From positions 1 to 58,029 of IMG/VR virus record IMGVR_UViG_3300005077_000021: DNA of 58,029 nt; one strand, given 5' to 3'. Shown piece after piece: positions 16,302-54,581 of this stretch. Positions within the stretch are counted from its first letter, which is position 1, and every line of letters begins with the position of its first letter. A program made the position numbers and the translations under genes. The notes beneath the pieces are model-generated. The model had not been told where the DNA came from, searched no databases, and saw only the letters and a list, made by a program, of their open reading frames with translations. This DNA comes from a virus (taxonomy: Duplodnaviria > Caudoviricetes).

Positions 16302-16314
16302 TTGGAGGAGCTTC

Positions 16315-31282: not shown

Positions 31283-31304
31283 AAATGATTCAGAGGAGGA
31301 GACA

Positions 31305-34501: not shown

Positions 34502-35526
34502 CCTTGGAAGAGTTCAAGATTGATTGGTGTAACGAAGGGATGGGGGACGGGTCCGGGAACAACTATGGATACACCGTCCACAACCGGACGCTGAGACGTT
34601 ATTGTGAACGGCTGGTGAAGATTGACCCTTCGGCGGAGGACTCCCTGGTGATTCTCCCACCGGAAGGGTACAAGCCGAAGTTGGGAAAAGTGAACTGGCT
34701 CTTCACCATGTTTGAGGGGGAGGACATCCCGGAACCCTACACAAAATATTTGGTCAACGCTGATTACCTCCTGACCCCTTCCAACTGGGTCCGCAATCTC
34801 TTCTCCAGGATCTATCCCAGGGATAAGATATTCGTGGTGAACCACGGGGTGGAGCCTTTCTTCTCGTACAAGAAACGGGAGTGGCCCCTCCCGAAGAGAC
34901 GCTTCCGATTCCTCTGGGTGGGGGCCCCGAACCCCCGCAAGGGGTGGCAGGAGTTGATCTACGCCTGGAAGAATGCCGGGCTAGAGAAGATGCCTCATCT
35001 GGAACTCTACCTCAAGACCACGAACATCCCGAACCCAGGAGGGGACGGGGTCCAGGTGAACAAGAACGTGGTGGTCGATGGGAGGAACCTTCCACGGAAG
35101 GAACTCCTCCAGCTGTATCACTCGGCGCATTGTTTTCTTTTTCCTACGAGGGGGGAGGGATTCGGTCTCACCCTGGCGGAGGCTATGCGAACCGGGCTCC
35201 CGTGTGTGTCCACTAGCTACAGCGGGGTGACCGACTTCTTCGACGAGGACGTGGGTTATGAGATACCATATACGATCCAGCAATCATCCGTGAGTTTCGT
35301 CGGCCGGCCGGATCTCGGGGAGCACCTCACGAGGGTGGCCTTCCCGAACATGGAGGAGATGATCAAGAGGATGTATGAAATATGTCGGGATCGCGGATCG
35401 TACAAGCGGGCCCTGAACAGAGGACAGAAGGCCTATGCCAGGATGTTGAACTTCACGTGGGAACGATCCGCCCAGACCATGGTAGATGTCATGTTCCACG
35501 AGTTTAAGCAGAGGAGGAGGAGATGA
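34498..35526 (+). CDS. Glycosyltransferase, GT4-like
   Basis: NPRKG, FPTRGEGFGLTLAEAMRTG, FTWERSA. Confidence 0.9.
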   Translation: MTLEEFKIDWCNEGMGDGSGNNYGYTVHNRTLRRYCERLVKIDPSAEDSLVILPPEGYKPKLGKVNWLFTMFEGEDIPEPYTKYLVNADYLLTPSNWVRNLFSRIYPRDKIFVVNHGVEPFFSYKKREWPLPKRRFRFLWVGAPNPRKGWQELIYAWKNAGLEKMPHLELYLKTTNIPNPGGDGVQVNKNVVVDGRNLPRKELLQLYHSAHCFLFPTRGEGFGLTLAEAMRTGLPCVSTSYSGVTDFFDEDVGYEIPYTIQQSSVSFVGRPDLGEHLTRVAFPNMEEMIKRMYEICRDRGSYKRALNRGQKAYARMLNFTWERSAQTMVDVMFHEFKQRRRR

Positions 35527-36539
35527 AACTGGATTGGAGAACTCATGAGGCCCTGATCACCATCGGACTGGCCAATGCCTATGGGTACTACACCCACAAC
35601 ACGAATTTGAAGGAACAGGTCGGGAAGCTGGTGGAGTTTTCGGAAGAAGCAGAGGATACCCTTCAAATTACCAGCCCTGAATCTTTCCGGCCGGTTGAAG
35701 GAAAAGTGAATTGGCTCTTCACCATGTTCGAGGGGGAGGTGATTCCGGAGTTCTACCAGAAGAATCTTTTGCAGGCGGACTTTCTCATTGTTCCGTCTTT
35801 CTGGGTGAAGAAGAATTTCATTCAGTGTGGGGTCACCAGGCCGATCTTCGTGGTTCCTCATGGGGTCCGTCCGGAGTTTTCTTACGTGGAGAGATCCTTG
35901 CCGAAGAAGGGGGAGCGGTTCCGGTTCTTGGCGGTGGGGGCCCCCAACAATCGGAAGGGGTGGGAGGAGATTGACTTTGCCTGGAAGAGGCTCTTCAAAG
36001 ACAATCCATCCGTGGAACTCTACCTCAAGACCACCGGACTGAAGGACATCGGGGACTCGGTGGTCACCATCGGGAATGTGATCATCGATGGGAGAAATGT
36101 TCCTCTAGAGGAGTTGGTGAAGATATATCACTCGGCTCACTGCTTCCTCTTCCCCACCCGGGGGGAGGGGTTCGGGCTGACCCTGGCCGAGGCCATGCGG
36201 ACCGGGCTCCCGTGCATCTCTCCGCTGTACAGTGGAGTGACCGAATTCTTCGATCCTTCGGTCGGATTCGCCGTGGACTATATGAACGCCGACATAGAGT
36301 TCTCCTTCCCTGGATTGGGGAACAGGAAGTGGTGGACGCGAGGAGGGATCCCGGATATGAAGGCCCTCTGTGATGCTATGCTGTACGTTCCACAGCATTG
36401 GGAGGAGGCCGTGGAGATGGGGTTCCGGGCTAGCCAGAGAATCTCGGACAGATTTACTTGGGAGAAATCGGCTAGGCTATTGTATGATATATTGAAAAGG
36501 GAAGTGAAAAAGAGAAGGGGACAACATGGCTCTGATTAA
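35523..36539 (+). CDS. Glycosyltransferase, GT4-like (paralog of the preceding gene)
   Basis: NNRKG, FPTRGEGFGLTLAEAMRTG, FTWEKSA. Confidence 0.9.
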   Translation: MKLDWRTHEALITIGLANAYGYYTHNTNLKEQVGKLVEFSEEAEDTLQITSPESFRPVEGKVNWLFTMFEGEVIPEFYQKNLLQADFLIVPSFWVKKNFIQCGVTRPIFVVPHGVRPEFSYVERSLPKKGERFRFLAVGAPNNRKGWEEIDFAWKRLFKDNPSVELYLKTTGLKDIGDSVVTIGNVIIDGRNVPLEELVKIYHSAHCFLFPTRGEGFGLTLAEAMRTGLPCISPLYSGVTEFFDPSVGFAVDYMNADIEFSFPGLGNRKWWTRGGIPDMKALCDAMLYVPQHWEEAVEMGFRASQRISDRFTWEKSARLLYDILKREVKKRRGQHGSD

Positions 36540-38081: not shown

Positions 38082-38498
38082 ATGGCTTTCTTTCGAGGCA
38101 AGGATGGAATTGTGAGTGTGTCTGCCAATGCGGTGGCTCAGTTGACCGACTGGACCCTGAATATCGAGGGCACCGCCATCGATACCACCGTGATTGGGAA
38201 TGAGTGGAAACAGACCGTTCAGGGGTCGCGTGGATGGAACGCTACAGTGAACGGGTTCATTGCGATGGATGATACCAACGGACAGAAGTCCATGATCGAC
38301 GAGGTGATTGACGCGACCTCCGATGGTTATGTGACCCAGGTGCGGTTTGAGGCGGCGGATGGGACAGTTGATGGGTACTTCTATGGTTCTGCCGTGATTA
38401 CCGCCATCGCCATCAACAACCCCGGAAATGATGATGTCGTGAAGGTTTCCATCACCATGACCGGACATGATCGGATGTATTACAAGCCGTCAACGTAA
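38082..38498 (+). CDS. Major tail tube protein
   Basis: GKDG, WTLNIEGTAIDTT..GNEWKQTVQGSRGWNATVNG, FYGSAVIT, VKVSITMTG. Confidence 0.85.
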   Translation: MAFFRGKDGIVSVSANAVAQLTDWTLNIEGTAIDTTVIGNEWKQTVQGSRGWNATVNGFIAMDDTNGQKSMIDEVIDATSDGYVTQVRFEAADGTVDGYFYGSAVITAIAINNPGNDDVVKVSITMTGHDRMYYKPST

Positions 38499-39225: not shown

Positions 39226-39639
39226 ATGAGTAAACCGGTTTGGGTGTCGATGGATCGTGACGAATTCGATTCAAGTGAGTTCGGATCTTTGGGGAAGGAG
39301 ATTCGTCTTGATTGTCGATTTTTCATTCAACCTCTGACCACTGAAGTGGTGGAGAAAGCCTGCCTGGCGGTGAGTAATGGGGGTACAATCTCCATCGATG
39401 AGGTGGATGATGATGGAGAGGGGGATCTTCTATATCAGGTGCTTTGTGGGCTTGTCTGCGATTGGTATGGAATCATGGACGAAGAGGATGTTCCCATCCC
39501 ATACTCCGTGGAGAATGTGAGGAAGATCGCCAGGAGATATCCTGGGGTTGCCGGGGCGTGGGTGGACATCGCCATGAATCTATCCTTGGTAGAGGTAGAG
39601 GTAGAGAAAGAAGAAGAGGGAGTGGTGGACGATGGCTGA
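39226..39639 (+). CDS. Second tail assembly chaperone-like protein
   Basis: LVCDWYGIMDEEDVPIPYSVEN resembles the gpG-like motif of 38559..38906. Confidence 0.6.
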   Translation: MSKPVWVSMDRDEFDSSEFGSLGKEIRLDCRFFIQPLTTEVVEKACLAVSNGGTISIDEVDDDGEGDLLYQVLCGLVCDWYGIMDEEDVPIPYSVENVRKIARRYPGVAGAWVDIAMNLSLVEVEVEKEEEGVVDDG

Positions 39640-42271
39640 TGAAAAGGAACTCAAGGTCAGGTTTGTGATCAAGGATGATGGGTCTGTTATCCTGGAGAGG
39701 CTGGATCACGGGTTCCAGAAGGTCAAGAATAGTGCCGAGCAGGCCTCCGTCTTCACCGGGAAGTGGATGGCGGTGTTGAAGGCGGCTGTTGGTCCACTTC
39801 TCGCTTTTGGTACCGCGGCCCTGAGTATTTATCAAGTGAAGAAACAGATCGGGGCGTTTCTTGATGAGGCTGATCGCTTCCAGAAATTGAGCACCCGATT
39901 GAATGAGACCACCAATTTCTTGAGTGAGATGGCTGTTGTAGCCGACCTTGGTGGAATGTCAGCACAAAGTCTTTACCAATCAATCCAAATTCTCAAGATT
40001 CGTATGGGGGAGTTCGCGCAGTTTGGAACGGGTGAGGGGAAGGATGCCTTCCGAAAGCTTGGGGTGGAGCAGGATATTCTCAATGGAAAGTTCAAGGATG
40101 CAGAGTCGTTGTTCCCGAAGCTCGTGGAGGGGATCAACAACCTAAAGAATGAAACCGACAAATCATCAATGGCTTATCGGTTGTTCGGTAGAAGCGGCGT
40201 TGAGATGATGCAGATCATCCGTCAGGGTTCCGATGAGATTGAGAAACAAAGAAATCTAGCCAGGGCCCTCGGGTTTTCAATGGATCAGGATGTGGCCGAT
40301 GGGGCCGCTAATGCTTTGGATGCCCTTGCTTTATTGAGGTATGGACTCATTGGGGTCCGGGAGGAATTTGGTAAACGCATCAGTCCGGTGATCGAGGATG
40401 CCGCTAATGATATCACAGAGGCCCTCATTCGTTTGCGGGCGGATGGGACTCTCGAAGAGTGGATTGACAATTTCGTAGATTGGATGGAACGGGGCGGAAA
40501 GAAGGCGGCTGCTCTGGCTCGTGAAGTGTCAACCATTCTTTCCGTCATCGAGAAGCTGAGAACCATGGGTGGACTCGCCCCGGATGAGATTCTCGGGCAG
40601 AGAACCTCCGGGATATTTGGTCCGATTGAATTGTTCAAGGGGGCTTTCAAGGGGGCGGCTGGTATCGGTTTCTCCCTGGCGAAGAAGGTAGGAGATGCTT
40701 TTGTAGAGCGCTGGACACAGACCAGACGAGGGATAGCTGAAGAGTTTGGCTGGAGTTGGCTCTACAATAAAAACGACCTGCAGGGGGCGCTTGACGATGT
40801 CCCCCTTCCAGACCTGAGCCCAAAGAAAGACACAACCGCTACTGGTGGGAGTTCCCTGTTCTACACCGACGAGGACTTGGCAAAGTTCAAGCAGATGCGT
40901 CGGGAGGTGCTTTCCCTTTCTGCTGGGGAGTTGGAAAAACGACTGCTCGACCTTGATGCGTTTAGACTGGAGGCCATTGCTTCCTATGAGAAGGTGGGAA
41001 AGAGTACGGCGGAGATCGAAGAGGCCTACTCCACCGCCAGGGCGAAAATTTTCGAGGATGGTTTGGAAGAGCAGAAGGAGTCTTTGAGGACGTTCGAGAA
41101 GTTTTATTCCGATGCCATGGAGGGCTTCCTAAACGCCGGTGGGGGTGGTGGTGTCCGGTTGTTCGCCGGGACCGGGACGGAGCAGTTCTCAAGAGAGTTG
41201 GAGGCCGAGAGGTTAGAGATCGAGAACAATCACAAGTCCAAGCTTGCCGAGCTTGACAAGTTCAACACCGAGGTGAGGAAGAAGATTGATGAGCTTAAAG
41301 CGGCGCGAGAACTAGCTCATGGTGACGAACTCCAGATGATTGATGACCGGCTGGATCGGTACTCCTCCATGCTGGAGGATATGAAGGGGGTGGATCAACT
41401 CTATTATGACTACAGGAGAGAGCAAGAAGACAAGGCTCTTGAGGATGAGATTGAAAGGAACCTTGGGAGGAAGGAAATCAACGAGGAATACTTCGAGTGG
41501 TATTTGGAGAGGCTAAAGAGCCTGGGGGCTTCGGAGAAGGATATCAATGCGGCCAACCTTCAACAGATGCGGGCCGGGGCAAAGTCCCATTGGGATGGAC
41601 TGAAGCTTGGGTTCAAAGAAGTGGAGAACAATTATTCCGACTTTGCGGGAGCCACCTCCCAGGGAGTTCAAAGTCTGGCCTCCACCTTTTCCTCTTCCTT
41701 GGGTGGAGCCATGACCGACATAATCATGGGTACCAAGGATATGGATCAAGCCTTTGCCGAGATGGGGGCAAACGTGATCCGAACCATCATGGATACCATT
41801 ACCCAACTTCTGATCGAGTGGTTGATCATTCAGATGATCAAGGGGATTTCCTCCTTGGCCAGTTCCGGTTCTGGGGCGGCTGGGGGAGGAGGTACCGGCG
41901 GGGTAAGTTCCGGGTACGGAACCAATCTCAATCCGGTTCCAATCAACAATGGCCCGATCATGACCAGCACCGGCTTGGGGGGATACACGCAAATAAGTTC
42001 GATGCTTGATGCCGGGCTCACCCGGACCTTGGGAGGAGCCTCCACCGTTTCTGCCTTTGGTGGAGGAACCGGTGGGGGAAGTTCTTCGGAATCAGCGGAG
42101 GTTACCATCAATCTCATCAATCAATCCGGGGAAGATGTGAAGGCTCGTCAGGTATCCTCCAGGAGGGATGGTCGGAGGCAGATTCAGGATGTTGTGTTGG
42201 AGAGTTTGTATTCGTCTCCTGATTTCAGGAAAAACTTTCGCAGGGGCATTGGTGTTGGAGGACTTGGATAA
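39632..42271 (+). CDS. Tape measure protein
   Basis: 879 aa, helical, LFGRSG, follows the chaperones; C-terminal VTINLINQSG. Confidence 0.9.
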   Translation: MADEKELKVRFVIKDDGSVILERLDHGFQKVKNSAEQASVFTGKWMAVLKAAVGPLLAFGTAALSIYQVKKQIGAFLDEADRFQKLSTRLNETTNFLSEMAVVADLGGMSAQSLYQSIQILKIRMGEFAQFGTGEGKDAFRKLGVEQDILNGKFKDAESLFPKLVEGINNLKNETDKSSMAYRLFGRSGVEMMQIIRQGSDEIEKQRNLARALGFSMDQDVADGAANALDALALLRYGLIGVREEFGKRISPVIEDAANDITEALIRLRADGTLEEWIDNFVDWMERGGKKAAALAREVSTILSVIEKLRTMGGLAPDEILGQRTSGIFGPIELFKGAFKGAAGIGFSLAKKVGDAFVERWTQTRRGIAEEFGWSWLYNKNDLQGALDDVPLPDLSPKKDTTATGGSSLFYTDEDLAKFKQMRREVLSLSAGELEKRLLDLDAFRLEAIASYEKVGKSTAEIEEAYSTARAKIFEDGLEEQKESLRTFEKFYSDAMEGFLNAGGGGGVRLFAGTGTEQFSRELEAERLEIENNHKSKLAELDKFNTEVRKKIDELKAARELAHGDELQMIDDRLDRYSSMLEDMKGVDQLYYDYRREQEDKALEDEIERNLGRKEINEEYFEWYLERLKSLGASEKDINAANLQQMRAGAKSHWDGLKLGFKEVENNYSDFAGATSQGVQSLASTFSSSLGGAMTDIIMGTKDMDQAFAEMGANVIRTIMDTITQLLIEWLIIQMIKGISSLASSGSGAAGGGGTGGVSSGYGTNLNPVPINNGPIMTSTGLGGYTQISSMLDAGLTRTLGGASTVSAFGGGTGGGSSSESAEVTINLINQSGEDVKARQVSSRRDGRRQIQDVVLESLYSSPDFRKNFRRGIGVGGLG

Positions 42272-42640: not shown

Positions 42641-43744
42641 ATGGCTCGGGTTTTCATAGACGGGTTTGAGGGTGGGGATTTCATGAGTCAGTACACCGCC
42701 ACCCCATATAGCAGTGGAGCCGTAGCGGTTTACTCCGCCACTCAAGCGGGTACTGCCTGGAAATCTGGAGAAACCTTCTCCGCCCCCGCCAGGGGTAGTT
42801 ACGTGGCTTTCATGCGGTACCCTGGTTCCTACCTGGACTTGGATATCTATCCGGACTTTGTTGGGATACTCAATATCCTCCACGTGAAATTCCGGTATCA
42901 GACAAGTACATCTGGAACCACCGGTAGTGATGCGTTGTTGAAGTTCATCAATGGTTCTGGTTTGACCATGACTACCGTGGGGTTGGTAAACAATTACCTG
43001 GCAATTTGGAAGGGGGAAGTATCGACCCCGACCCTGGTGGAGTTGTCCAGTTCCCTCATCCCGAAAAATACGTGGGCTTGTATCGAGGTGGCGGTCGCAA
43101 TCAATTCGTATGGTTCCGGAACAGGGACTTATAAGGTGTACCGGGACGGAACCCAGGTATTGGGAGGGACCGCCGACATCAATGGAGCCTCTTCCGGGAT
43201 TCCGTCAATCCAGACCCTCCAATTTGGTTTGAGTGGAACAGGTTCAACGGATACAGCAGCCATCGATGACATCGTGGTGGATGACACCAACTCCACCGCT
43301 TCAATGGTTATTGGAACTTCATACGTCTCTGCCCTGTACCCCAATGCAAATTCGGTCAACGCATGGGGATTGAGTAACTCTGCCCAGGCGGTTTACCTCC
43401 ATGTGAACGAGGCCCCAGCAGATGATACTGATTATCTGTACACCTCTGGGGTGAATGTAGAGTTTGATCTCGGATTGGATAATCCGCTTTCCACAATCAA
43501 TCCGGTGAAGAATCTGCAGGCTCAATACAGGGTCATCAAGTATGGATCTCCGTCTTGTAGTTCGGTTGAACCATTTCTCCGGAACACCACTGGCTACGGG
43601 ATGAGTGGGGTGAACAAGACCGTTCCTTCTTCGATGAAAACGGTGTGTCATATTTGGCCGTCTAGACCAACCGCTATGGGAGGGGGTTCTTGGTATTCGA
43701 CCAATATGGGTGCGGTTCGCATCGGACTCAAGTCAAAAGGTTGA
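42641..43744 (+). CDS. Minor tail protein with ConA/lectin-like beta-sandwich
   Basis: FIDGFE start; NTWACIEVAV..GTYKVYRDGT..IDDIVVDD; rich in G/S/T. Confidence 0.55.
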   Translation: MARVFIDGFEGGDFMSQYTATPYSSGAVAVYSATQAGTAWKSGETFSAPARGSYVAFMRYPGSYLDLDIYPDFVGILNILHVKFRYQTSTSGTTGSDALLKFINGSGLTMTTVGLVNNYLAIWKGEVSTPTLVELSSSLIPKNTWACIEVAVAINSYGSGTGTYKVYRDGTQVLGGTADINGASSGIPSIQTLQFGLSGTGSTDTAAIDDIVVDDTNSTASMVIGTSYVSALYPNANSVNAWGLSNSAQAVYLHVNEAPADDTDYLYTSGVNVEFDLGLDNPLSTINPVKNLQAQYRVIKYGSPSCSSVEPFLRNTTGYGMSGVNKTVPSSMKTVCHIWPSRPTAMGGGSWYSTNMGAVRIGLKSKG

Positions 43745-43748
43745 TGAC

Positions 43749-44243
43749 ATGTCTTTTATCAAGGGGAAAGATGGTCTAATCCAGATTGGTGGGGTGTCGG
43801 TAGGTCAGGTGACCGATTGGCAATACTCCATCTCAAAGGAGGCTATTGAAAACACTCGGGTCGGGAATGAGTGGAAGCGGTATCTCCTTGGCAAGAGATC
43901 CCAGGAGTTTGTGATCAATGGATTTATTGACATGGGGAACACCGAACAACTGGCCCTGGTCAATGCTCTCCTCTCCAGCACGGCGAGTGGGGTGCTTTCT
44001 TCTATTCGATTTGTTCTCTCCGGTCCGGACTCCTATGATGGCACCGGGGTGGTGACCAAGTTTGGGATTCAGAATTCGGGGAATGATTCTGTTGTCCGGT
44101 TTTCTGCGTTGGTGGTTTGCGGGTCCATATTTCCAGCCACTGGATACATAGCTTGTACCCAAGCTCTTATTCAGATGGAGTATTTCGGTGGACTATCCAT
44201 CACCTGTTTTCAAGCCCTTGTTCAAGTGGAGCATGAAGGATGA
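43749..44243 (+). CDS. Tail-tube paralog with C-terminal extension
   Basis: KGKDG..VGQVTDW..GNEWK..NGFI..NSGNDSVV aligns by eye with 38082..38498. Confidence 0.75.
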   Translation: MSFIKGKDGLIQIGGVSVGQVTDWQYSISKEAIENTRVGNEWKRYLLGKRSQEFVINGFIDMGNTEQLALVNALLSSTASGVLSSIRFVLSGPDSYDGTGVVTKFGIQNSGNDSVVRFSALVVCGSIFPATGYIACTQALIQMEYFGGLSITCFQALVQVEHEG

Positions 44244-45709
44244 AGACCCTACCCGGCGCGTTGATCACTGCGAAGAATCGTTTGTGTGATACCTATCCTT
44301 GGTTGGTTCTCTTGGAGATCATAAACGATGATTGGGAGACCATCCCTTATGATGGGCTGACCAGACACTTTCATGAGGGGGCCACGGCGTCCACCCCTAC
44401 CGGAACCGCTTCCATCAAGTTTGATATTCAACTCAGTGACACCACCGGGATCCTGGTGGTCTACGGAAGATCGGGAACCTTTTCGGACAACCAGAATCTT
44501 TCTGACAATGGGTCTCCTTCCGGGCTCGCGAAGGTGAATGGAACGATGGAAACCGGGGAAGCCCGGATCCGTCTTGCCAGAAACACCGCTTCCATTTACT
44601 ACACCTATCTGGGAAAGCATTTCTATGCCTTCCCCTTTGAGATCCAACCGATTCAGGATAGTCGAACTGAAGTTCCCGTCATGGCTATTTCTGTTAGTAA
44701 CGTAAGCCGTTTCATCGAGGCATACGCCAATCAATCCGGGGGGCTCATTGGGAAGCAGATGAGGATCATGATGATCTATGCCGGCGACCTTGGGCAGGCC
44801 CCGGCCTTGGATCAGACCTATTATGTATTGGAGTGCAGTATCGATATCGATGCGGTGTCTTTTTCTCTTGGTATGAAGAACCCTTTCCTGGAACGATTCC
44901 CAAGGAATCGTTTCAGTAGGAAGATTTGTCGGTTCCGTTTCGGGGAGGATGGGTGTGCCGCCAGTCCCTCCGGATCCCAGACCTGCAATCATACCCTGTC
45001 TGATTGTATGTATTGGGTCACCGCCACGGATAGGAGGGATCGGGCCCACAGCTTCGGAGGATTTCCTGGGATTCCCAACGGGTATTTTGAAAACACCCAG
45101 CAGGCCGGAACCGGATACGCTAATGATCTTGTTATAGCTTCTTCTGTCTCTTCCGTCTCCGTTTCTCAAAGCAGTTCGTTGAGTGTCTTTTCCGCTTCTA
45201 GTATTTGCTCGTGTAGCTGTTCCAGTTCCTACGACGCGGCCAATCATCCTATTTCCGAATCTTCTTCCTCCAGTTTTTCGTGCTGTTTCAGTAGCTCTAT
45301 TTCCTGTCTCAGTAGTTCGTCTCTGTCGGCATCCTCCACCTCGGAGTCTGTTTCCAGCAGCAGTATCAGTTCCAGCACCAGCAAAGAAAGCAAGAGTTCA
45401 AGTTCTTGTGTTTCGTCGTGGTCTGACTCCATCTGTTCCAGTTCTTTGTCGGCGGTGAGTGGGGATTCGAAAAGTTCCTCCAGCAGTTCTCCGAGTTCCT
45501 ACAGCTGCTGTTCCTGCAGTAGTTCCTGCATGAGTTCCAGCACCAGTGGGAGTTCTTGCTCTTCAAGTTCCGACTCTTGTAGCAGCAGTAGTATCAGTTC
45601 CAGCAGCCGGAGTGTTTCGAAATCTTCTACCAGCACTTCTTCTACCAGCACAAGTAGCTGTTCCTCTTTGATTGTCAGTAGCAGCGTTTGTTCCTCTTCG
45701 ATTGCTTAG
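44240..45709 (+). CDS. Lambda gpL-like tail-tip protein with a Ser/Cys-rich C-terminal extension
   Basis: FYAFPFEI, ISVSNVSR, CRFRF..GC..CNHTLSDC..FGGFPGIP, then ~190 aa of low-complexity Ser/Cys. Confidence 0.8.
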   Translation: MKTLPGALITAKNRLCDTYPWLVLLEIINDDWETIPYDGLTRHFHEGATASTPTGTASIKFDIQLSDTTGILVVYGRSGTFSDNQNLSDNGSPSGLAKVNGTMETGEARIRLARNTASIYYTYLGKHFYAFPFEIQPIQDSRTEVPVMAISVSNVSRFIEAYANQSGGLIGKQMRIMMIYAGDLGQAPALDQTYYVLECSIDIDAVSFSLGMKNPFLERFPRNRFSRKICRFRFGEDGCAASPSGSQTCNHTLSDCMYWVTATDRRDRAHSFGGFPGIPNGYFENTQQAGTGYANDLVIASSVSSVSVSQSSSLSVFSASSICSCSCSSSYDAANHPISESSSSSFSCCFSSSISCLSSSSLSASSTSESVSSSSISSSTSKESKSSSSCVSSWSDSICSSSLSAVSGDSKSSSSSSPSSYSCCSCSSSCMSSSTSGSSCSSSSDSCSSSSISSSSRSVSKSSTSTSSTSTSSCSSLIVSSSVCSSSIA

Positions 45710-45721
45710 GTGGTTGGAGAT

Positions 45722-46180
45722 ATGTTGACCGCGGAGCAGAACAGGAAATTGGTGGAGGTGATGTCCCACCCCTACATCCCGGATGAGTTCAATTGCGTGA
45801 TGTATGTATGCCGGGTGAGTGAAATCCTTGGTGTCCCTTTTCCTTCGATGGATGAGATGTTGATGGATCTCTCCAAACAGGAACTTCTGGATGCTTACGA
45901 AGACCTCAACAGTGTTGTCCCTCAAGAGGACTGGATCAGGAAGTCCGGGGAAGCTTACTTCGGGTTTCGTAAACTTTCAGATAGGGAATCCCCCCGGGTG
46001 GGGGATATAATAGCTTTTAAGGGGGATTCCCCCAGGGGAGTGGTACGGCACATTGGAATTATAATTGACGAGGATGGAACCTACACTCACATGAACCGGC
46101 GTGGAGCGAAGATCGCAAAGTTTCATTCTCGATTCATGGAGAATAGAATCCTTGGTTTTTGGAGGAGGGAAGAAAAGTGA
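45722..46180 (+). CDS. NlpC/P60-fold tail assembly protein (gpK-like)
   Basis: PY...FNCVMYV, GDIIAF, RHIGI, YTH; sits between gpL and gpI/J. Confidence 0.7.
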   Translation: MLTAEQNRKLVEVMSHPYIPDEFNCVMYVCRVSEILGVPFPSMDEMLMDLSKQELLDAYEDLNSVVPQEDWIRKSGEAYFGFRKLSDRESPRVGDIIAFKGDSPRGVVRHIGIIIDEDGTYTHMNRRGAKIAKFHSRFMENRILGFWRREEK

Positions 46181-49100
46181 AGGTTCGTTTCACGGTGATG
46201 AAAAACATCCTGGACCCTCACACCGCCACCCGGGGGGTCTTTGAGGCCCCGGGTCCGATTGATCTGCTACAAATGATTCAGAAGGTGTGCCCGGAGTTTT
46301 CCGGACTGAAATTGAAGGTGGCTGTAAATTCTCATCCAGTGGTTGGTCTTGATTCCTTTGTTTTGGAGGATGGAGACTTCGTTCTCATCACCCCTTCTAT
46401 TGACGAGGCTGGGGTGATCATCGGGGTCATCGGGGCTATCATTGCAGTTTTGTCTATCGGATGGTCCATATATCAATACTCCACGTTGAGCAATCAACTA
46501 AACTCGTTGAAGAATCAGGTGGACCCCCATCTGTCTGATTCGTCGGGAACCCTCTCCCAGGCTTTTGGTTTCAACATCAGGGAGAACCTTACTTATGACG
46601 GGAACCCCATTCCGGTGCTCTACGGGATTCAACGTCTGGGGGGGACAATCATCAATCAGTTTCTCTACTGCCCAGCTCTGGGCGAGAGGGAACGGGTGAA
46701 GCTCTGTTTGGGTTTGTGTGAGGGCCCGGTCGAAGCGGTGGCCCCGGGTGGGGCCGATGACGTTTTTCTGGATGATTCCCAGCTGTCCTCCTTTGCCGAC
46801 TTCGATTACGAGGGGAGGGTTGGATCGGACGCAGAGTTCTTGACCGCACCCACCATTTGCCGGAGGGTGTATCAGCAAAAATATTTTGGGGACTCCCTGA
46901 TTCATTACAATACGTGGCATCTTGTCAGGTCTTCCGGAACCGTGATAAATGTGGCAAAGCCGATTGCCGGTCTTTACCCGGAAAATCAAAAGAATCGCTA
47001 TCAAGTTTCCGGACAATCTGGCATTAGTTATTTCGCATCTGGTGGGATTGATTGGGTCTCCATGTACTATGATTCATCCTACGCCAGGTTCAACGAGACC
47101 TCCGATCCATCGGAGACCACCATCAGTAACTTGGTTGATCCATATACCGAGCCCTTCACCGTTTCTTTCTACATGATGAGGAACGACGATCTGACCGGGA
47201 TCCCGGATGGGGGGAGTGCCGCTCGTGTGGTTTTTCGTTCTCAGCCGGATCTGGATGGTCCTCCTCTGTGGGGAATGTGGGAAGAAAGTCTTGTGAAACA
47301 ACCGGAGGACTCTGCATACAATTTTGCATCTCAGCGGTCGTGGGGAGTGTTCCTCTATCGCATTGGTTCTTCTGTTCGGATTGCTTTGATAGTGGTGAAG
47401 TGTAATGGAAACCGGTACGACGGATATGTGGATTCTCAGAACCTATGTATCAAGTCCAATTCCTTCCCCATCACCGACCTGACCGGGGTGGATGGGAAGG
47501 GTCCGTTTTTTGCTTTCGTCCGGGAGGGGGACATCCTGAAGGTCTTCAAGGATGGGAAGGACATCACTGATGCTAACTCCAGTTTTTCCTTGGATGACTC
47601 CAGCGTTCACGCCCAGAATGTGCTTATCTCTGCTACCGGCAAACCTCACAACTTTCACACTACATTTGCCATTGGTGGGCAGGTTGGAATATTCAATCAT
47701 CCATACTGGTATGGAAGCCACGCGGCTCACGTGGCTGTGGGGAATCTGAAAATTCACATTGGCAAGGCCAAGTGGATTAGAGAGTTCACCCCTCCATCGG
47801 TGGCGGAGATGGTAGCGATAGAGGACCACGAAGCTCATTCCTACGATTGGGAGGGAATCAGCCACGGGTTGATTATTCAGTATCGATTTCCTCATGGGTT
47901 GTATGGGTATGACTGGGGTGGAAATCCAGTGAGAAGTGGGACTCTCATTCAGACCGGGGCGTACCCGTCTTCTCCGAATCCATCCCCGATACTTCCATTT
48001 CCCTATCATTCGTTTGTAGTCCCAACCTCTAGCCCGGCCCCGTTCCCGGCGAATGTAATGTCTGGTCGTTCTACTGGTTTGGTGAATCGTTCTGTTGAGA
48101 TTCCTTTCATGTATGTAACGGTCACCAATATCGGATACAAGTTTTACTTAGGGGATGCCGTCTATAGGAACGGGTACCCCAATGATCGGGCTACCTTGTT
48201 GGCCTCCGCTTTGTGGAATGGAGTTTCCTACCTTTTCATCGGGGTGGATGAGAATCAAAGTATTCCAAACTGGCCGGCTGGGAGCATCATAAAACAGGAT
48301 GCTCTTGGAGCGGTGGGGACGGTTACCTCTGCCGGGGTTCAGCAGGGAACCTACCCGGGGAGACTCGGCTGCGCGGTGTGTTCCCCCACCTGGAGTGGGC
48401 AAAAGAATACAAACAAAGTGAACCTCCATACCGTGGCTCGTTACATGGATCTTCGGCTTCGTTACCCCCAGACCGCTACCATCTCGGTGGAGCTACGGGC
48501 TGGGGATCGGATGGCGGATATTCCCAAGATTAATGCCATAGTGAAGAGGGTGGACCCCGACGCCTCCAAGCCTTTGTATAGATGGACCGGTTCCGCTTAC
48601 TCTACCATTTCTGGATCTGCAAAGTTTCAGAACCCAGCGTGGATTGTGTGGGATATGTTGACCAATGGATGGGACAAGAGTGGGGTTCGGCAAGGAAACT
48701 ACGGGGCCGGGATAGATCCCAAATATCTTGACTACACTTCTTTCAGCCAGTGGGCGGGCTATTGCTACACCCTCCTCCCGACAGGTACCAATTATTACAC
48801 CAGATGCACTTGCAATATCGTATTTGACATGAAGGACAAAACGCTGTGGGATTGTTTGGAAATGGTATGTATTCTTGGGAGGGGAAGACTGAAGCTCTCC
48901 GGGAACAAATACTACATTTCCTTTCACTGCCCCACGTATTCCGATCCCGCCAACATTCTCCCCACCCAGATATTCACCTCTGGGAACATCAAGGAGGGAT
49001 CCCTTCTTACCTCCTGGCTCCAGCAATCCTCCCGTCCGGACAGGGTGATTGTGGAGTTCAGTGATGCCAACAATTACTATTTGAAGGGATCGGCGGTGGC

Positions 49101-49704
49101 TTCCGTTTCTGGGTTTGATGATGCTACGGAAGTTCAGAATGAGAGTACTTACTTCATCCCTGGTATCACCACCAGAGAACATGCTCGGAGGGAGGCTATT
49201 CTTCGTCTTCAGTTGGCAAGGTCCATTACGAGGAAGGTAGAGTTCGAAGCCGACATTGATGCCATCGCTTGCGAAGCCGGTGATGTGATAGCGGTTCAGC
49301 ACGAAGGGGACAAGTACAAATTTGGTGGTCGAATCATTGGCACCTCTGGTGGTTCCACCCTGTTGCTGGATCGGACTATCAATCTTGATGCTTCCATGTT
49401 CAACTTCAATACTGGAACCTTGACCGGAAATTGTATTATCTTGGTGCGTTCCGGCAGCACCATAGTCAAGAGGTACGTGACCGGTCCATTCGGTTCCGAT
49501 ACATCTCAAGTTAATATTACAGGTTCGGTGTCTAGCGGTATGGTTGATGCTCAATATGGGATAGGAAAGACGGATTACTCCACTTGGTTCTACATGATCG
49601 AATCCATCGAGATCACCCAGGAGGGGACCGCGAAGATTGAAGCATTCAACTATGACCCATCGGCTTACTTCTATTCTACCGAGTATGGCGCAACCCCGAT
49701 CTAA
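46177..49704 (+). CDS. Central tail tip protein (gpI-like N-terminus fused to gpJ-like hub, inserted LamG-like domain)
   Basis: VNS..VLEDGD; PIPVLYG..GG; LGLCEGPV; NPAWIVWDMLTN..YGAG; CEAGDVI; YDPSAY. Confidence 0.85.
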   Translation: MKVRFTVMKNILDPHTATRGVFEAPGPIDLLQMIQKVCPEFSGLKLKVAVNSHPVVGLDSFVLEDGDFVLITPSIDEAGVIIGVIGAIIAVLSIGWSIYQYSTLSNQLNSLKNQVDPHLSDSSGTLSQAFGFNIRENLTYDGNPIPVLYGIQRLGGTIINQFLYCPALGERERVKLCLGLCEGPVEAVAPGGADDVFLDDSQLSSFADFDYEGRVGSDAEFLTAPTICRRVYQQKYFGDSLIHYNTWHLVRSSGTVINVAKPIAGLYPENQKNRYQVSGQSGISYFASGGIDWVSMYYDSSYARFNETSDPSETTISNLVDPYTEPFTVSFYMMRNDDLTGIPDGGSAARVVFRSQPDLDGPPLWGMWEESLVKQPEDSAYNFASQRSWGVFLYRIGSSVRIALIVVKCNGNRYDGYVDSQNLCIKSNSFPITDLTGVDGKGPFFAFVREGDILKVFKDGKDITDANSSFSLDDSSVHAQNVLISATGKPHNFHTTFAIGGQVGIFNHPYWYGSHAAHVAVGNLKIHIGKAKWIREFTPPSVAEMVAIEDHEAHSYDWEGISHGLIIQYRFPHGLYGYDWGGNPVRSGTLIQTGAYPSSPNPSPILPFPYHSFVVPTSSPAPFPANVMSGRSTGLVNRSVEIPFMYVTVTNIGYKFYLGDAVYRNGYPNDRATLLASALWNGVSYLFIGVDENQSIPNWPAGSIIKQDALGAVGTVTSAGVQQGTYPGRLGCAVCSPTWSGQKNTNKVNLHTVARYMDLRLRYPQTATISVELRAGDRMADIPKINAIVKRVDPDASKPLYRWTGSAYSTISGSAKFQNPAWIVWDMLTNGWDKSGVRQGNYGAGIDPKYLDYTSFSQWAGYCYTLLPTGTNYYTRCTCNIVFDMKDKTLWDCLEMVCILGRGRLKLSGNKYYISFHCPTYSDPANILPTQIFTSGNIKEGSLLTSWLQQSSRPDRVIVEFSDANNYYLKGSAVASVSGFDDATEVQNESTYFIPGITTREHARREAILRLQLARSITRKVEFEADIDAIACEAGDVIAVQHEGDKYKFGGRIIGTSGGSTLLLDRTINLDASMFNFNTGTLTGNCIILVRSGSTIVKRYVTGPFGSDTSQVNITGSVSSGMVDAQYGIGKTDYSTWFYMIESIEITQEGTAKIEAFNYDPSAYFYSTEYGATPI

Positions 49705-50477: not shown

Positions 50478-50878
50478 AACTTGCTTGGAGAATGTACGGG
50501 GTTCCCTACATTTGGGGAGGGGATGACCCGATACGTGGGCTAGATTGCTCCGGAATGCAAGTGGAGATTCTGAAGTCGGTAGGAATCCTACCAGTACATG
50601 GAGACTGGACTGCTCACTCGCTATGGCTTTTCCTCAAGGGAAGGGAGATCCGGAATCCGATTGCTGGAGCCCTTGCTTTCTGGGGGGATCCTCAAATGAA
50701 AACTCACGTGGAGATGTGTCTGGACGACCGGTTCTCCATTGGGGCCAGCAGTGGGGGATCCGGAACTACCACGGTTGATGCCGCCATCCGAAGCAACGCC
50801 TTTGTGAAGGTTCGTCCAATCTACAACAGAGGAGACCGAAGACCGGTCAGCTTTGCTGACCCATTCCCGAAAACCTGA
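50453..50878 (+). CDS. NlpC/P60 peptidoglycan endopeptidase (probable endolysin)
   Basis: GVPYIWGGDD..GLDCSG, GALAFWG, THVEM. Confidence 0.8.
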   Translation: MGQKELALKLAWRMYGVPYIWGGDDPIRGLDCSGMQVEILKSVGILPVHGDWTAHSLWLFLKGREIRNPIAGALAFWGDPQMKTHVEMCLDDRFSIGASSGGSGTTTVDAAIRSNAFVKVRPIYNRGDRRPVSFADPFPKT

Positions 50879-50903
50879 TCCGATCCAGAGGAGGAGGAGA
50901 TCA

Positions 50904-53225
50904 ATGAAATGTCCGCTATGTTCCACCCCCACTATCTTGCCGATAGATCGGGACCGGGTTCAATCTCATTTGATAGTCGCCAAGCTGGAGGCGGAGAAGA
51001 AAGAAGAGGCCCCCCACATTCATCTCCACGGTCCGTGGGAAGACAAGGAAGTTTCCAGGGAATTGATTCAGGCGGCTTGTGAGAGGGTGGGGATCTCCCT
51101 CGGCGCGAAGGAGGGATCTCCACCAAGGGAGATCATCTTCCGGAACAAGCAACGTATTGGTGATACCATCACCATGACCGCAGCCGTGAGAGATTTCAAG
51201 AAGGCCTTCCCAGAAACGCGGGTCGGGGTGATGACCTCTTCTAGAACTCTCTGGAAACACAATCCATATGTCGACCTTGATTTCCTGGATCGAGAGGATT
51301 GTGTGGTAGACATCGGTCCTGGGTATCTCACAAACAAAAGCAATCAGTGGGATACCCACATGATCAACTCCTACCGACTATCAATGGAGCAGAACCTCGG
51401 CCTCCGCATCCCACCCGGGGAGAGTATCCCGGACCTTTGGATGACAGAAGAAGAGATCAGAGAGCCCATCGTCCAGGGACCATACTGGATCATCACGGTT
51501 GGAGGGGAGCCCAACTGGCCGGCGAAGATGTACCCCATCGATTGGTGGCAGGAGGTGGTGGATCGTCTCCAGGGAGTGGTTCAGTTTGTCCAGCTTCAAC
51601 TAGCTAGTGATCCTTACCCAAGACTCAAGAACGTGATCGACCTGGTCGGGAAGACCGAAGACCCGGATACTGGAGTACGTGATCTCCTGAATCTTTTCTA
51701 CCACGCCCAGGGGTCCGTGGGTTTGGTTTCCATGCAAATGCACATGGCTGCTGCTTTTGGAATTCCTTGTGTGGTGGTTGCGGCCGCTCGGGAGCCTTCT
51801 TGGTTCACTCATTACCTGGGACATCAATACCTGTCCACTGAGGGAACTCTTCCCTGCTCGATTGAGAAGGGGAGGACCAAGGCCTGTTGGAAGTGTGGGA
51901 TGGACTCCTGCCGGGAGAAGAGACAAGACGAAGGAATGGGGGTGGACCCGGACGATCCCATTCCCCCATGCGTGGCCCTGATCCGTCCATCCATGGTGGA
52001 GGATTCCATCCTCTTCTACTATCGTGGAGGCCGGCTGAAGAAGGGGGAGAAGATTCCTAATGGGGGATTCAAAAATATTGTGAAGGAGGAGAAACCAAAG
52101 AAGGTCTCCTTTGTGAAGGAGAGGGGGATCTCCAAGAAGGACATCATTCTTCACGGGTCTCTTTCTTCCAGGGGGGGAGGGGAGCAGAGTCTGGTAAAGA
52201 TCAAGAAGGTGTTGGAGGCGCGGGGGTGGAACCCCCATCTCATCCCCTGGGGAAAGGTTCATGATCGATTCCGGGGGGAGGCCCTTCTCACCCCTCTTTC
52301 TTGTCAGGAGCGTTCGGTGGTTGCCGGGCTCCCCATCCTCTTTTACGCCAATGATCAAATTACCGAGTTCTGTCAATGTGGGTGGGCCCCACCTATTGTG
52401 GAGGGGAGTGGAGGGTTGGTGATCGGGATCAACTATGTGAATGGGGAACTTCCTCGCTGTGAGTGGTTGTCCAGGTCCGGGAAGTTAAAAGCGGTCCTGT
52501 TCCAGAATGAGGAAAAGCGAGAGGAGTTCCTCGAAGCCAGAACACAGCCATTCGATGGGGTTCAGTTCCTTACCCTCCCTGGGGCCATCGACCTGGAGAA
52601 CTACGCAGGTATCCCCATTACCGATCGCCAGGCAGAGGATTCTCTGGTGGTCTTGAAGCACTGCGTTCCGGATTTCCGGAAATACGTCACCTCCCGCTCG
52701 GTGGGGGAGGGCCGGAAGATTCATGTTTGGCAGAAGGAGATAGTCAAGGAGGACGATATTCAATTCTACTCAAGGCTATTGAAGGATCTCCCCGGGTCCG
52801 AATTCCGGTTCATGGAGGCCCACCCGGAATTGGTGGAGCATTTCAAGGGAGAACCCAGGATGGTGTTCTTCAAGTTCGATCAGATCCCGGTGGCGGAGTT
52901 CCTCTCCGGTGGGCACGTATATCTGTATCGCACCAGCAACCTCTGGCGGGATCAATTCCCCAGGGTGGTGGGGGAGGCCCTGGCTTCCGGGCTTCCGGTA
53001 CTTACCGAGCCGAGAGACGGGACGAAAGATCGGGTTCAGCATGGGGATACCGGATTTCATTGTGTTGACTACGATGGATTCCTTTACTCCCTGAAACTGC
53101 TCAAGAGGAAGGAACAATACCGGAGAAGGATGGGGGAGGCTGCGCGGCGATGGGCCTTGAAACATCTCGATCCATTCAAGTGGTCCGATATCCTGGCTGA
53201 TCTGTTCGATGCCTGGGAGAAGTGA
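50904..53225 (+). CDS. Two-domain glycosyltransferase (GT9/heptosyltransferase-like plus GT4-like)
   Basis: IGDTITMTAAVRD, HNPY, KMYP..WQEVV, DLVGKT, MHMAAAFGIP; second domain RGGGEQS...DQFPRVVGEALASGLPV..HGDTGF. Confidence 0.85.
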   Translation: MKCPLCSTPTILPIDRDRVQSHLIVAKLEAEKKEEAPHIHLHGPWEDKEVSRELIQAACERVGISLGAKEGSPPREIIFRNKQRIGDTITMTAAVRDFKKAFPETRVGVMTSSRTLWKHNPYVDLDFLDREDCVVDIGPGYLTNKSNQWDTHMINSYRLSMEQNLGLRIPPGESIPDLWMTEEEIREPIVQGPYWIITVGGEPNWPAKMYPIDWWQEVVDRLQGVVQFVQLQLASDPYPRLKNVIDLVGKTEDPDTGVRDLLNLFYHAQGSVGLVSMQMHMAAAFGIPCVVVAAAREPSWFTHYLGHQYLSTEGTLPCSIEKGRTKACWKCGMDSCREKRQDEGMGVDPDDPIPPCVALIRPSMVEDSILFYYRGGRLKKGEKIPNGGFKNIVKEEKPKKVSFVKERGISKKDIILHGSLSSRGGGEQSLVKIKKVLEARGWNPHLIPWGKVHDRFRGEALLTPLSCQERSVVAGLPILFYANDQITEFCQCGWAPPIVEGSGGLVIGINYVNGELPRCEWLSRSGKLKAVLFQNEEKREEFLEARTQPFDGVQFLTLPGAIDLENYAGIPITDRQAEDSLVVLKHCVPDFRKYVTSRSVGEGRKIHVWQKEIVKEDDIQFYSRLLKDLPGSEFRFMEAHPELVEHFKGEPRMVFFKFDQIPVAEFLSGGHVYLYRTSNLWRDQFPRVVGEALASGLPVLTEPRDGTKDRVQHGDTGFHCVDYDGFLYSLKLLKRKEQYRRRMGEAARRWALKHLDPFKWSDILADLFDAWEK

Positions 53226-53920
53226 TGGAGATATGCGTCTGCGGGTGGTATTTGGATCCGGACTTCCTTCGGGTACTTCAAAGAGTTTCCAAAAAGCACC
53301 CAGTGACTATCGTTTGCAACAATCGGGAGGGAGTTGGGGAGTTGCTTGGTTTGGGGCTCCCCTTCGTTCTTCGGGAGAACGTCGGCCTGGAGTGGGGGGC
53401 CTATGATTGTTTTTTGAAACATTTGTGGGGAGGAAGAAGTGATGTGCTTTTCACCCATGATGATGTCCGGGTGATGGATGATCGGGTGTTCGACCAAATA
53501 TCTGTAGTGGACTTTGATCAAGCTTACATTTTCAAGAACCAGAGGGAGGAGAGGAACAATGGTGGAAAGCACGGGAGGGCCATCTTCATGTCGGCCAGGC
53601 TCCTCCGGCTTCTTCGAGAACATGAATGTGTATGCCATCAGTCTGGACCTCGCTTTGATGTTCATCACAACCACGGATGGGAACTTCCGGGAACGGGTCC
53701 GCATCGGGGATTCTGGTTCGATCCTCACAACCTTGGCCATATTTCCGGGAAGCCCCCACCCGGGGTGAGGCATTACAACGAAGCGGTTTATCATTTTCAT
53801 TGGCAGATGGGGAGAGTTCGAGATGGAAAGATCGGAGGAGGTGGGTACCGAGTCGTCGGAAGAGTGTTCTTCCCAGACTACGATTGCGCCAGAAGAGGGA
53901 CGTTCCGACTTGAAAGGTAG
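53225..53920 (+). CDS. Glycosyltransferase-like protein (GT-A/GT2-like)
   Basis: RENVGLEWGAY, VLFTHDDV. Confidence 0.6.
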   Translation: MEICVCGWYLDPDFLRVLQRVSKKHPVTIVCNNREGVGELLGLGLPFVLRENVGLEWGAYDCFLKHLWGGRSDVLFTHDDVRVMDDRVFDQISVVDFDQAYIFKNQREERNNGGKHGRAIFMSARLLRLLREHECVCHQSGPRFDVHHNHGWELPGTGPHRGFWFDPHNLGHISGKPPPGVRHYNEAVYHFHWQMGRVRDGKIGGGGYRVVGRVFFPDYDCARRGTFRLER

Positions 53921-54581
53921 CATCATCATTGCGGTCTTGGAATCGTATGAGGTGGTGAGAAGACAGCTACGTCTGTTCGAGTTTCTGTTTGAGGGTAGAG
54001 ACGACCTGGAATTGATCTTAGTGGATGATGGTTCCAGACCACCGATTGAAGGGGTGTGTGGAAAGCCTAGTATCAGGCATTTCCGTTATCTTCAAACAAG
54101 AGATTACCGGCCCTGGTCCCAGCCGTGTGCACGAAATGCCGGGGCTTCCATTGCTCGTGGGGAGTACTTTCTCTTCACTGATATCGATCACATCCTCACC
54201 CCGGCGGCTATGGAGGCCCTCTATAGGTTTGATGGGGACAAGATGCATTTTCAGAGGATGTATGCTCTCCTGGGGGAGAGTGGTCAGATAATCCGGAATC
54301 ATCCTCTCCTCCTGGAATATGGATGCCCGGAGAAAGACCTTGATGTGGTAAGCAGCCACGAGAATACCTTCATCATCCGCGCAGAGTTGTTCTGGGAGTT
54401 GGCTGGATATGATTCCCGGTTTTGCGGGAAGTATGGGGGGGACGATACCGACTTCAATCGGCGTTACGGGGAGCTTCATCGGAGAGGGATAGCCAAGAGA
54501 TCGGAGAGAGGTCCGATGATCTATGTCTACCCGGACCCAAGACGGGATGTGAAGAGACTCTTTCATTCCCTTCGGTGGTGA
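53910..54581 (+). CDS. Glycosyltransferase family 2
   Basis: ELILVDDGS, ARNAGA..GEYFLFTDIDH, GYDSRF..YGGDDTDF; probable TTG start at 53910. Confidence 0.85.
   Translation: MKGSIIIAVLESYEVVRRQLRLFEFLFEGRDDLELILVDDGSRPPIEGVCGKPSIRHFRYLQTRDYRPWSQPCARNAGASIARGEYFLFTDIDHILTPAAMEALYRFDGDKMHFQRMYALLGESGQIIRNHPLLLEYGCPEKDLDVVSSHENTFIIRAELFWELAGYDSRFCGKYGGDDTDFNRRYGELHRRGIAKRSERGPMIYVYPDPRRDVKRLFHSLRW

Follow-up and report, generated by a model that had tools for sequence, protein, structure and literature searches.

Long serine-dominated regions and glycosylated virion proteins have been described separately in bacteria and phages. Polyserine linkers (PSLs) join domains in more than one quarter of over 180 carbohydrate depolymerases of Saccharophagus degradans, and those of Saccharophagus, Cellvibrio and Teredinibacter are presented as low-complexity regions thought to be flexible extended spacers (PMC2386152). 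In mycobacteriophages, capsid and tail-tube subunits carry glycans at their C-termini, according to two reports that cite Freeman et al. 2023 (PMC12619734, PMC11256854). In the last ring of the phage lambda tail, three copies of the tail-tip hub protein gpL form a trimer, with their C-terminal domains on the exterior of the tip and with Cys173, 182, 205 and 212 as iron-sulphur (Fe-S) ligands. Hub proteins of the gpL type are conserved and their structure is well understood, yet the role of the exposed Fe-S domain is still open (PMC10721106). Here we analyse a 489-amino-acid (aa) protein of the IMG/VR virus record IMGVR_UViG_3300005077_000021 (Duplodnaviria; Caudoviricetes), in which a gpL-like domain is followed by a long Ser/Cys-rich tail. 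The window referred to below is this whole record of 58,029 bp.

In biophysical terms, the tail comes closest to the PSLs of carbohydrate-active enzymes, with which it shares a long and Ser-dominated sequence of low complexity. They differ from it in joining two folded domains of secreted enzymes, whereas the tract described here forms the end of a virion protein, has a lower Ser content (59%) and contains 16 Cys. We did not class the tract as a PSL, since it is C-terminal and followed by a stop codon, and readthrough into the next gene was unsupported, although it may work in a similar way. By analogy, the nearest functional precedent is the virion glycosylation of mycobacteriophages (Che8 and relatives), in which the glycosyltransferases (GTs) are phage-encoded, as are the five GT genes of the present phage; there the targets are capsid and tail-tube subunits and not the hub, and the accessible parts of those reports mention no long polyserine tract. 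In the works that we searched on polyserine or serine-rich phage tails, tail tips and O-glycosylation, no such tail was described.

Two other systems were considered and rejected. The serine-rich repeat protein (SRRP) adhesins (Fap1/GspB, with GtfA/GtfB and accessory Sec), to which the initial annotation had compared the tract, likewise combine a Ser-rich region with linked GT4-family enzymes, and the similarity proved to be a generic GT4 signal only. The (SX)n dipeptide repeats of SRRPs were absent, the lag-2 autocorrelation of the tract being like that of shuffled sequences (z 0.01 to 1.0), and the GtfA model TIGR02918 gave 27.6 and 18.8 bits where the cut-off is 574.6, far too low for a GtfA/GtfB linkage. 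No signal peptide or LPXTG motif was seen in the translation, and no SecA2/Y2 or other Sec gene among the 54 open reading frames (ORFs) of the window that were taken through family scans. Maturation of the sactipeptide/SCIFF type was also set aside, as no maturase scoring at threshold adjoins the tract.

Composition and coding frame of the tract

The conserved motif FGGFPGIP occupies aa 272-279 and is followed by 21 non-Ser residues (NGYFENTQQAGTGYANDLVIA) up to the start of the tract at aa 301 (nt 45140). The tract comprises 189 aa, of which 111 are Ser (58.7%), 16 Cys, 10 Val, 8 Ile, 7 Thr and 6 Ala; Arg (1), Gly (2) and Pro (2) are scarce, the net charge is near zero and the longest run of Ser is six residues. 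The Ser codons are mixed (AGT 29, TCC 25, TCT 23, AGC 20, TCG 12, TCA 2), and the strings CSCSC and SCC both occur. These data bear out the initial description of an in-frame extension after FGGFPGIP with about 60% Ser and 16 Cys. It is the only strongly Ser-rich stretch of the window. Other stop-free windows of 189 aa on the + strand contain at most 28 Ser.

The initial annotation had also stated that the tract lacks a simple tandem unit. The TRF program detected three tiny arrays only (9 nt x2.2, 12 nt x2.8 and 15 nt x1.9), and the longest internal repeat found by blastn/tblastn against the window measures 23 nt, with copies spaced 228 nt apart. Repeated codon 4-mers, on the other hand, were mildly more frequent than in shuffles (4 pairs versus 0.5, p=0.007), so the tract has no simple unit, as claimed, yet retains traces of local duplication. 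Apart from the 23-nt repeat, the same searches found no source of the tract elsewhere in the window. A variable region of the diversity-generating retroelement type was rejected because the window contains no second copy of the tract.

We found no periodicity of hydrophobic, Cys or non-Ser residues relative to shuffles. The spacing between Cys residues was also like that of shuffles, with no extra clustering of CSC or SCC motifs. In a crude neighbour model, which derives every non-Ser residue from one of the tract's Ser codons by a single substitution, 10.1 Cys are expected against 16 observed, a non-significant enrichment (p=0.06). No special cause has therefore to be sought for the CSCSC and SCC motifs that the initial annotation had listed. 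Arg, for which the same model predicts 15.3 residues, is strongly depleted (1 observed, p=1e-6), and as positive charge is avoided the composition is not simply neutral. Non-Ser residues are over-dispersed, being adjacent less often than expected (lag-1 z=-2.65), and together with the depletion of Arg this hints at a compositional constraint.

The 204 codons beyond the end point of the homologues contain no stop, which was reproduced by only 9 of 20,000 mononucleotide shuffles, and each of the five alternative frames of the tract is interrupted by 2 to 10 stops. The ORF ends exactly where the gpK-like gene starts. A promoter/terminator scan found no promoter-like site and no + strand terminator-like site within the tract. 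Its third-position composition matches the genome (A 0.05, versus 0.10 in the gpL domain), and its G+C content (0.496) and third-position bias are like those of the neighbouring genes. The codon-bias score of the Ser frame is 0.020 (gene mean 0.117, standard deviation (SD) 0.061). The minus-strand frame that shares its wobble positions reads as an E/L/Q-rich peptide with four stops, because AGY codons mirror to Leu, TCY to Glu and TGY to Gln. That frame uses GAA 39 times and GAG 13 times, whereas the genome prefers GAG (67%), and it scores -0.113, below the sense score of every gene (minimum -0.089). The codon scores and the continuity of the frame with gpL indicate that the Ser sense reading is correct. 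In the assembly the tract is real, and the Ser frame is almost certainly the one that codes.

Identity of the N-terminal domain

Family models applied to the query alone gave modest results: PF05100 reached 17 bits (cut-off 25) and PF08875 (DUF1833) an E value of 0.01, and PHROGs matches were to 'minor tail protein' families (phrog_396, E 2.6e-9; phrog_18, E 6.6e-7). Searched exhaustively with phmmer, a set of 1.84 billion representatives yielded 886 proteins at E<=1e-3, and precomputed annotations place PF05100 on nine homologues, three of which carry PF08875 as well. A profile built from the query domain and 10 homologues matched lambda gpL in the PDB (8iyk_L) at E 2.4e-10, in an alignment that spans the Cys-rich C-terminal domain with its four Cys and the FGGF motif. 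Cys 230, 239, 249 and 256 of the query are invariant in alignments of 11 and 40 sequences and align with Cys-containing segments of lambda gpL. In addition, the order of tape measure, gpL-like, gpK-like and gpJ-like genes is the canonical synteny of the tail tip. All the family features that we tested were thus present, and the N-terminal part of the ORF is, as judged from its sequence, a lambda-gpL-like tail-tip hub, in agreement with the initial annotation.

Compared with lambda gpL, homology extends over aa 1-285 of the query, with the four Fe-S Cys, the FGGFP motif and the same gene position. Lambda gpL ends a few residues past the motif, whereas the query adds 204 residues, 189 of them Ser/Cys-rich; the query also has an insertion of about 85 aa near the N-terminus that is common to only a subset of homologues. 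By homology with the lambda trimer, three tails would lie outside the tip. The Atlas model of the whole 489-aa protein has a mean pLDDT of 0.54 and a pTM of 0.39, and for the tail it yielded no usable neighbours.

The gpL family and its other serine-rich members

We retrieved 157 proteins, among them the best 150 of the 886 representatives (149 besides the query), and the best 80 of 221 IMG/VR relatives were examined. The 149 representatives end at a median of one residue beyond query position 285, and the conserved end of the family lies at about query aa 284-288. A few homologues have additional C-terminal sequence (P0137, P0091, P0075, P0046, P0085, P0076 and P0124), which is never Ser-rich, and among the other retrieved proteins Ser does not exceed 11 residues per 40-aa window. 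Four long-form metagenome relatives (L082, L083, L084 and L088; 31-35% identity) stop right past GGxFxx and have a gpK-like gene next. Close relatives of the tail tip were scarce: a gpJ-based scan gave identities of at most 33%, a search of a phage collection gave six Pseudomonas phage records at 20-23% identity, and a search of genome contigs gave three loci. Of 401 genomes sampled from one phylum, five had matches, with gpL-type frames of 169-215 aa and one weak partial match inside a 785-aa frame. Within this set of inspected homologues, the Ser/Cys tail is an appendage, without counterpart, of a bona fide gpL-type hub, as had been proposed. The gpL homologue of one long-form relative is split (L088, 7712-10623; metagenome contig of 62 kb whose tail-tip genes follow the same order): the matches to residues 1-185 and 136-285 are separated by about 1.9 kb that contains other coding sequence, which could represent a mobile insertion or an intron-like element.

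A scan for Ser-rich open frames in 118 fetched loci (947 kb) found two, in L087 and L109. The L087 frame (314-1978, +) encodes a 554-aa gpL homologue with an internal polyserine insert of 337 aa (84% Ser; Ser 282, Glu 25, Cys 0). The insert lies in the loop past the N-terminal 'LLEI' strand, in frame between conserved parts: the N-terminal strand is 52% identical to query aa 4-28, and the C-terminal core, with the four Cys and FGGFPGIPGG, is 30% identical to query aa 111-258. A short-form relative, L120, has an 11-residue loop at this site. As the polyserine of L087 is flanked in frame by gpL parts it must be the sense product. Its antisense frame is long, Glu/Leu/Asp-rich and interrupted by two stops, which shows that such frames are by-products of polyserine coding. 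L087 therefore resembles the query in being a gpL-type protein with a very long in-frame polyserine tract, and differs in that the insert is internal and not C-terminal, built of tandem units, Cys-free and with Glu as its main residue after Ser. Polyserine tracts thus recur in the gpL family, where they occupy different sites in at least two lineages. The initial proposal that gpL homologues be searched for such tails was answered in part, by this internal insert, and no second C-terminal tail was recovered.

The L087 insert also bears on codon usage. Its Ser codons are mixed (TCA 114, AGT 60, AGC 55, TCG 34), and yet it consists of degenerate tandem units of 6, 21 and 30 nt. Mixed AGY and TCN codons are consequently compatible with an origin by slippage, and the initial argument that they speak against it, and for selection at the protein level, does not hold. 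PSLs, too, are encoded by mixed Ser codons. The frame in L109 (1850-2266, -) is a 138-aa Ser-rich ORF antisense to a real Glu/Lys-rich scaffold-like gene (1962-3032, +), and it illustrates how an acidic gene can give a Ser-rich frame on its opposite strand.

Glycosyltransferase and radical SAM genes

Family scans confirmed the phage GT clusters and radical SAM genes that had been recognized initially. The phage has in total five GT genes with six GT domains. Three of these genes, all GT4, belong to an island inside the structural module that also encodes a NAD epimerase/dehydratase, a B12-binding radical SAM protein and a small radical SAM protein with a SPASM domain. The NCBIfam matches of the island proteins were sub-threshold and generic. 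The B12-binding enzyme gave generic matches to class-B B12-binding radical SAM proteins, the best being BchE, far below the cut-offs. Against the models of peptide maturases the SPASM protein scored 20-24 bits (cut-offs 300-855), with weak matches of the SPASM region to SCIFF (E 1.6e-5) and SkfB (E 6.8e-5) maturases, and its gene lies 11.6 kb upstream of the tract. A further radical SAM gene, at 16294-17010, is QueE-like (E 2.6e-46, below cut-off), and its product belongs with nucleotide metabolism. The 790-aa GT9-like and GT4 fusion protein encoded after the tail genes has one IMG/VR relative, at 36% identity (L109).

The island is kept gene for gene in L108, and in L107 to the end of the contig, at 47-76% aa identity. 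Its proteins had no match in the capsid relatives L103-L105 (44-56% identity), and in L104 and L105 a connector homologue lies within about 0.8 kb of the capsid gene, which indicates that the island is accessory, inserted into the late operon; the L106 sequence stops at the capsid gene and says nothing on this point. No Ser/Thr tails were seen on the capsid and tube proteins. The context of an epimerase gene, two radical SAM genes and GT genes inside the structural module fits glycosylation.

Proposed explanation and alternatives

In the explanation that we favour, the ancestral gpL stop would have been lost or bypassed, Ser-coding DNA inserted and locally duplicated, and the frame then kept open up to the gpK-like start. 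The tail would be an intrinsically disordered chain of the polyserine type, with a contour length of about 60 nm, and three copies per virion would stand out from the outer face of the tip. It may act as a hydrophilic streamer at the surface, with serines that are O-glycosylated by the glycosyltransferases of the phage late operon, and the resulting glycan brush at the tip could serve in adhesion to host surface polymers or in shielding. An exposed disordered streamer is the most likely nature of the tract, and a glycosylated brush is plausible. We assign a probability of roughly one in three to the whole explanation, a translated, exposed and disordered gpL streamer that is O-glycosylated. 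Of its parts, a real and translated tract is highly likely, and a tail that is both exposed, by analogy with lambda, and disordered is probable; actual glycosylation of the tail is considerably more doubtful. A dedicated late-operon system, made up of the epimerase, the B12-binding and SPASM radical SAM enzymes and several GTs, that builds an unusual, possibly methylated or tailored glycan on the polySer/Cys streamer at the hub seems improbable.

Several observations weigh against this explanation. C-terminal Ser tails occur in none of the 149 other representative homologues, in none of the 80 IMG/VR loci, in all of which the ORF ends 4-21 residues past the motif, and in none of the four long-form metagenome relatives. 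The nearest gpL homologue (P0002, 42% identity) is tail-less, the 489-aa protein forms a singleton cluster (one sequence, one contig), a search with the tract alone, in which 8000 candidates were scored, recovered nothing but the query, and the tract is known from one assembly only. Its residue order looks random, as does the order of AGY and TCN codons (runs test, p ~0.33), which fits a young and weakly constrained extension, and its codon adaptation is 1.6 SD below the gene mean. As for the enzymes, the phage GTs gave only generic matches to protein-O-glycosylation families, and the PDB matches of the 790-aa protein at E<=0.01 were GT4 enzymes only, with no chain of the GT9 family. The contigs of L107 and L108, which share the island, end before gpL. 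The main target of the island need not be the gpL tail, and the GTs could equally serve the modification of DNA or of the host surface; thymidylate-synthase-like and QueE-like genes are present.

Many of these points favour a young and near-neutral read-on, in which a lost stop was followed by a Ser insert grown by slippage or local duplication, translated but unmodified and of little or no function, and tolerated because the C-terminus points outward. We consider such an extension about as likely as glycosylation by the phage GTs. The absence of the tail from the examined homologues and of relatives of the tract, the random-looking order of residues and codons, the traces of local duplication, the low codon adaptation and a Cys count that matches single-step mutation of Ser codons all agree with it, and Ser frames stay open easily, TCA, the codon with two routes to a stop, accounting for 2 of the 111 Ser. 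It is less easily reconciled with 204 stop-free codons that end exactly at the gpK-like start, with the depletion of Arg and the over-dispersed non-Ser residues, with the longer and independent polyserine of the L087 gpL, which suggests retention, and with the addition of about 40% to the length of a structural protein. The near-zero net charge, the avoidance of Arg and the recurrence in L087 would also suit an unmodified but functional tail, a flexible, extended, hydrophilic and protease-tolerant chain that increases the reach of the tip or sticks weakly and non-specifically to envelope polymers. The outer position of the lambda gpL C-terminus (PMC10721106) and the use of polyserine as an inter-domain linker in S. 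degradans (PMC2386152) agree with such a spacer or adhesive. We regard it as rather unlikely, since a terminal tract has no domain behind it to tether, its Ser content of only 59% and longest run of six are unlike typical polyserine linkers, and the literature searched holds no experimental precedent in phage tails. An error of assembly or sequencing, by misinsertion of a low-complexity stretch or by a missed stop or frameshift past the gpL domain, would account for a singleton protein from a single metagenome-assembled contig, low-complexity DNA being prone to misassembly. We judge it quite unlikely, because the flanks are consecutive canonical L and K genes, the frame is kept up to the abutting gpK-like start, the tract is not a simple repeat and matches its neighbours in G+C content and third-position bias, and an analogous in-frame polyserine lies on the independent L087 contig.

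The initial annotation had further proposed a cross-linked, metal-binding filament and had pointed to radical SAM thioether enzymes. In the form considered here, the phage radical SAM/SPASM enzyme would act on the Cys/Ser-rich tract and form thioether or other cross-links, or the tract would be a thiolate metal-binding filament beside the gpL Fe-S cluster. The 16 Cys in 189 aa, the presence in the structural module of SPASM and B12-radical SAM genes that are kept in L108, and the weak SCIFF and SkfB matches speak for it. The maturase scores are, however, far below the cut-offs, the 289-aa enzyme is encoded at a distance and within a sugar/GT cluster, where sugar chemistry fits better, the matches of the B12 enzyme are generic and the third radical SAM protein is QueE-like. 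Moreover, Cys spacing is like that of shuffles, the abundance of Cys agrees with its mutational proximity to Ser, and the L087 polyserine has no Cys at all. Metallothionein-like proteins have a Cys density far above the 8.5% of the tract. We found no positive support for a cross-linked or metal-binding filament, and the whole proposal is very unlikely. Two other ideas were rejected. A gpL-polySer-gpK fusion, in which the tract would be a linker after readthrough or recoding of the TAG at 45707, is suggested by the gpK-like ORF directly after that TAG and in the same frame, and by the usual role of polyserine in linking domains. TAG ends 12 of the 62 + strand ORFs and is thus an ordinary stop in this phage; seven of the 62 are followed or preceded by a long ORF in the same frame, so nothing is unusual in the position of the gpK-like gene; and as the window contains no tRNA gene it holds no suppressor tRNA. 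A C-terminal fusion to a gpK-like domain occurs in none of the 149 homologues, their few extensions having been judged by eye, and gpK was undetected in lambda virions (PMC10721106), which leaves readthrough highly improbable. The idea that the minus strand is the true coding strand, with an E/L/Q-rich helical protein of which the Ser frame is the mirror image, draws on the E/L-rich reading of the wobble-sharing frame and on the L109 scaffold-like gene with its Ser-rich antisense ORF. It is scarcely credible, given the four stops in this frame (the longest listed ORFs being 62 and 50 aa), its codon score below that of every gene, a peptide almost without Lys or Arg, the location of the other window genes on the + strand and the same type of antisense frame, with two stops, opposite the sense polyserine of L087.

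Genomic organization of the record

The record is classed as linear, with a completeness of 72% by CheckV. The G+C content of the window is about 0.50-0.58 and its sizeable genes are all on the + strand. No tRNA gene or Rfam family was found in the window, and a promoter scan of the region gave nothing relevant.

Table 1. Position of the main genes and protein regions of the window
Feature	Coordinates	Strand	Remarks
UDG-exonuclease fusion, PolA, clamp-loader-like, RecA-like and SbcCD-like genes	replication/recombination part of window		family scans
Thymidylate-synthase-like (TS-like) and QueE-like radical SAM genes	14623-17010		TS-like = TIGR03283, E 2.6e-17, below cut-off
Portal-MuF fusion, 1080 aa	23912-27154		PF04860 portal E 9e-58; PF04233 Mu-F-like E 8e-19
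Major capsid protein gene	28821-30215		family scans
Candidate modification island, six genes	30398-36539	+	between capsid and connector genes; family scans
Small radical SAM protein with SPASM domain, 289 aa	32622-33491		
Three GT4 genes	33449-36539		
Connector and terminator genes	after modification island		family scans
Tail-tube-like gene, first copy	38082-38498		
Tape measure protein (tail module marker)	39632-42271	+	phrog_8125 E 1.5e-32
Tail-tube-like gene, second copy	43710-44243		directly upstream of gpL-like gene; major-tail-protein PHROGs
gpL-like hub protein with Ser/Cys tail, 489 aa	44240-45709	+	stop TAG at 45707-45709
gpL-like domain, aa 1-285	44240-45094	+	
Short non-Ser connector, aa 286-300	45095-45139	+	between conserved end and Ser tract
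Ser/Cys-rich low-complexity tract, aa 301-489	45140-45706	+	
gpK-like NlpC/P60-CHAP gene	45710-46180	+	CHAP E 5.6e-5; NLPC_P60 E 1.9e-4
gpJ-like central tail fibre/hub protein	46159-49704	+	phrog_31 E 1.1e-51; PF13550 E 1e-10
Second GT group (GT9-like and GT4 fusion, unknown ORF, GT2)	50853-54581	+	after tail genes
GT9-like and GT4 fusion, 790 aa	50853-53225	+	GT9 (heptosyltransferase-like) region weak, E 3.1e-4, below cut-off
GT2	53823-54581	+	family scans

The TS-like and QueE-like genes may form a candidate pathway of DNA base modification, an alternative client for the phage GTs; no QueC/QueD-type match was found among their scanned neighbours. Within the tail module, the second tail-tube-like copy is 36% identical to the tube gene of L108, and the 367-aa gene beside it (42641-43744) has no counterpart in L082, L084 and L088. 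The gpJ-like protein contains near its N-terminus a gpI-like stretch (aa 126-168, phrog_32 tail assembly protein), which suggests a possible I-J fusion, and no separate gpI gene was seen in the window.

Significance of the tail

The tail combines a gpL hub with a polyserine low-complexity region, both known kinds. For mixed Ser codons and 'Cys motifs' in tracts of this sort, the case shows that nothing special need be invoked, and if the tail is unmodified it documents the rise of low-complexity extensions on virion proteins. Together with the conserved sugar/radical SAM island, the tail makes this phage a candidate in which virion glycosylation could be tested beyond the mycobacteriophages, at the tip of the tail and not on the capsid. 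Should a dedicated late-operon modification system act on the tail, the L087 insert would make hub proteins a recurrent scaffold for streamers, and a glycosylated tail tip would be a new way for a siphophage to contact or evade the host surface.

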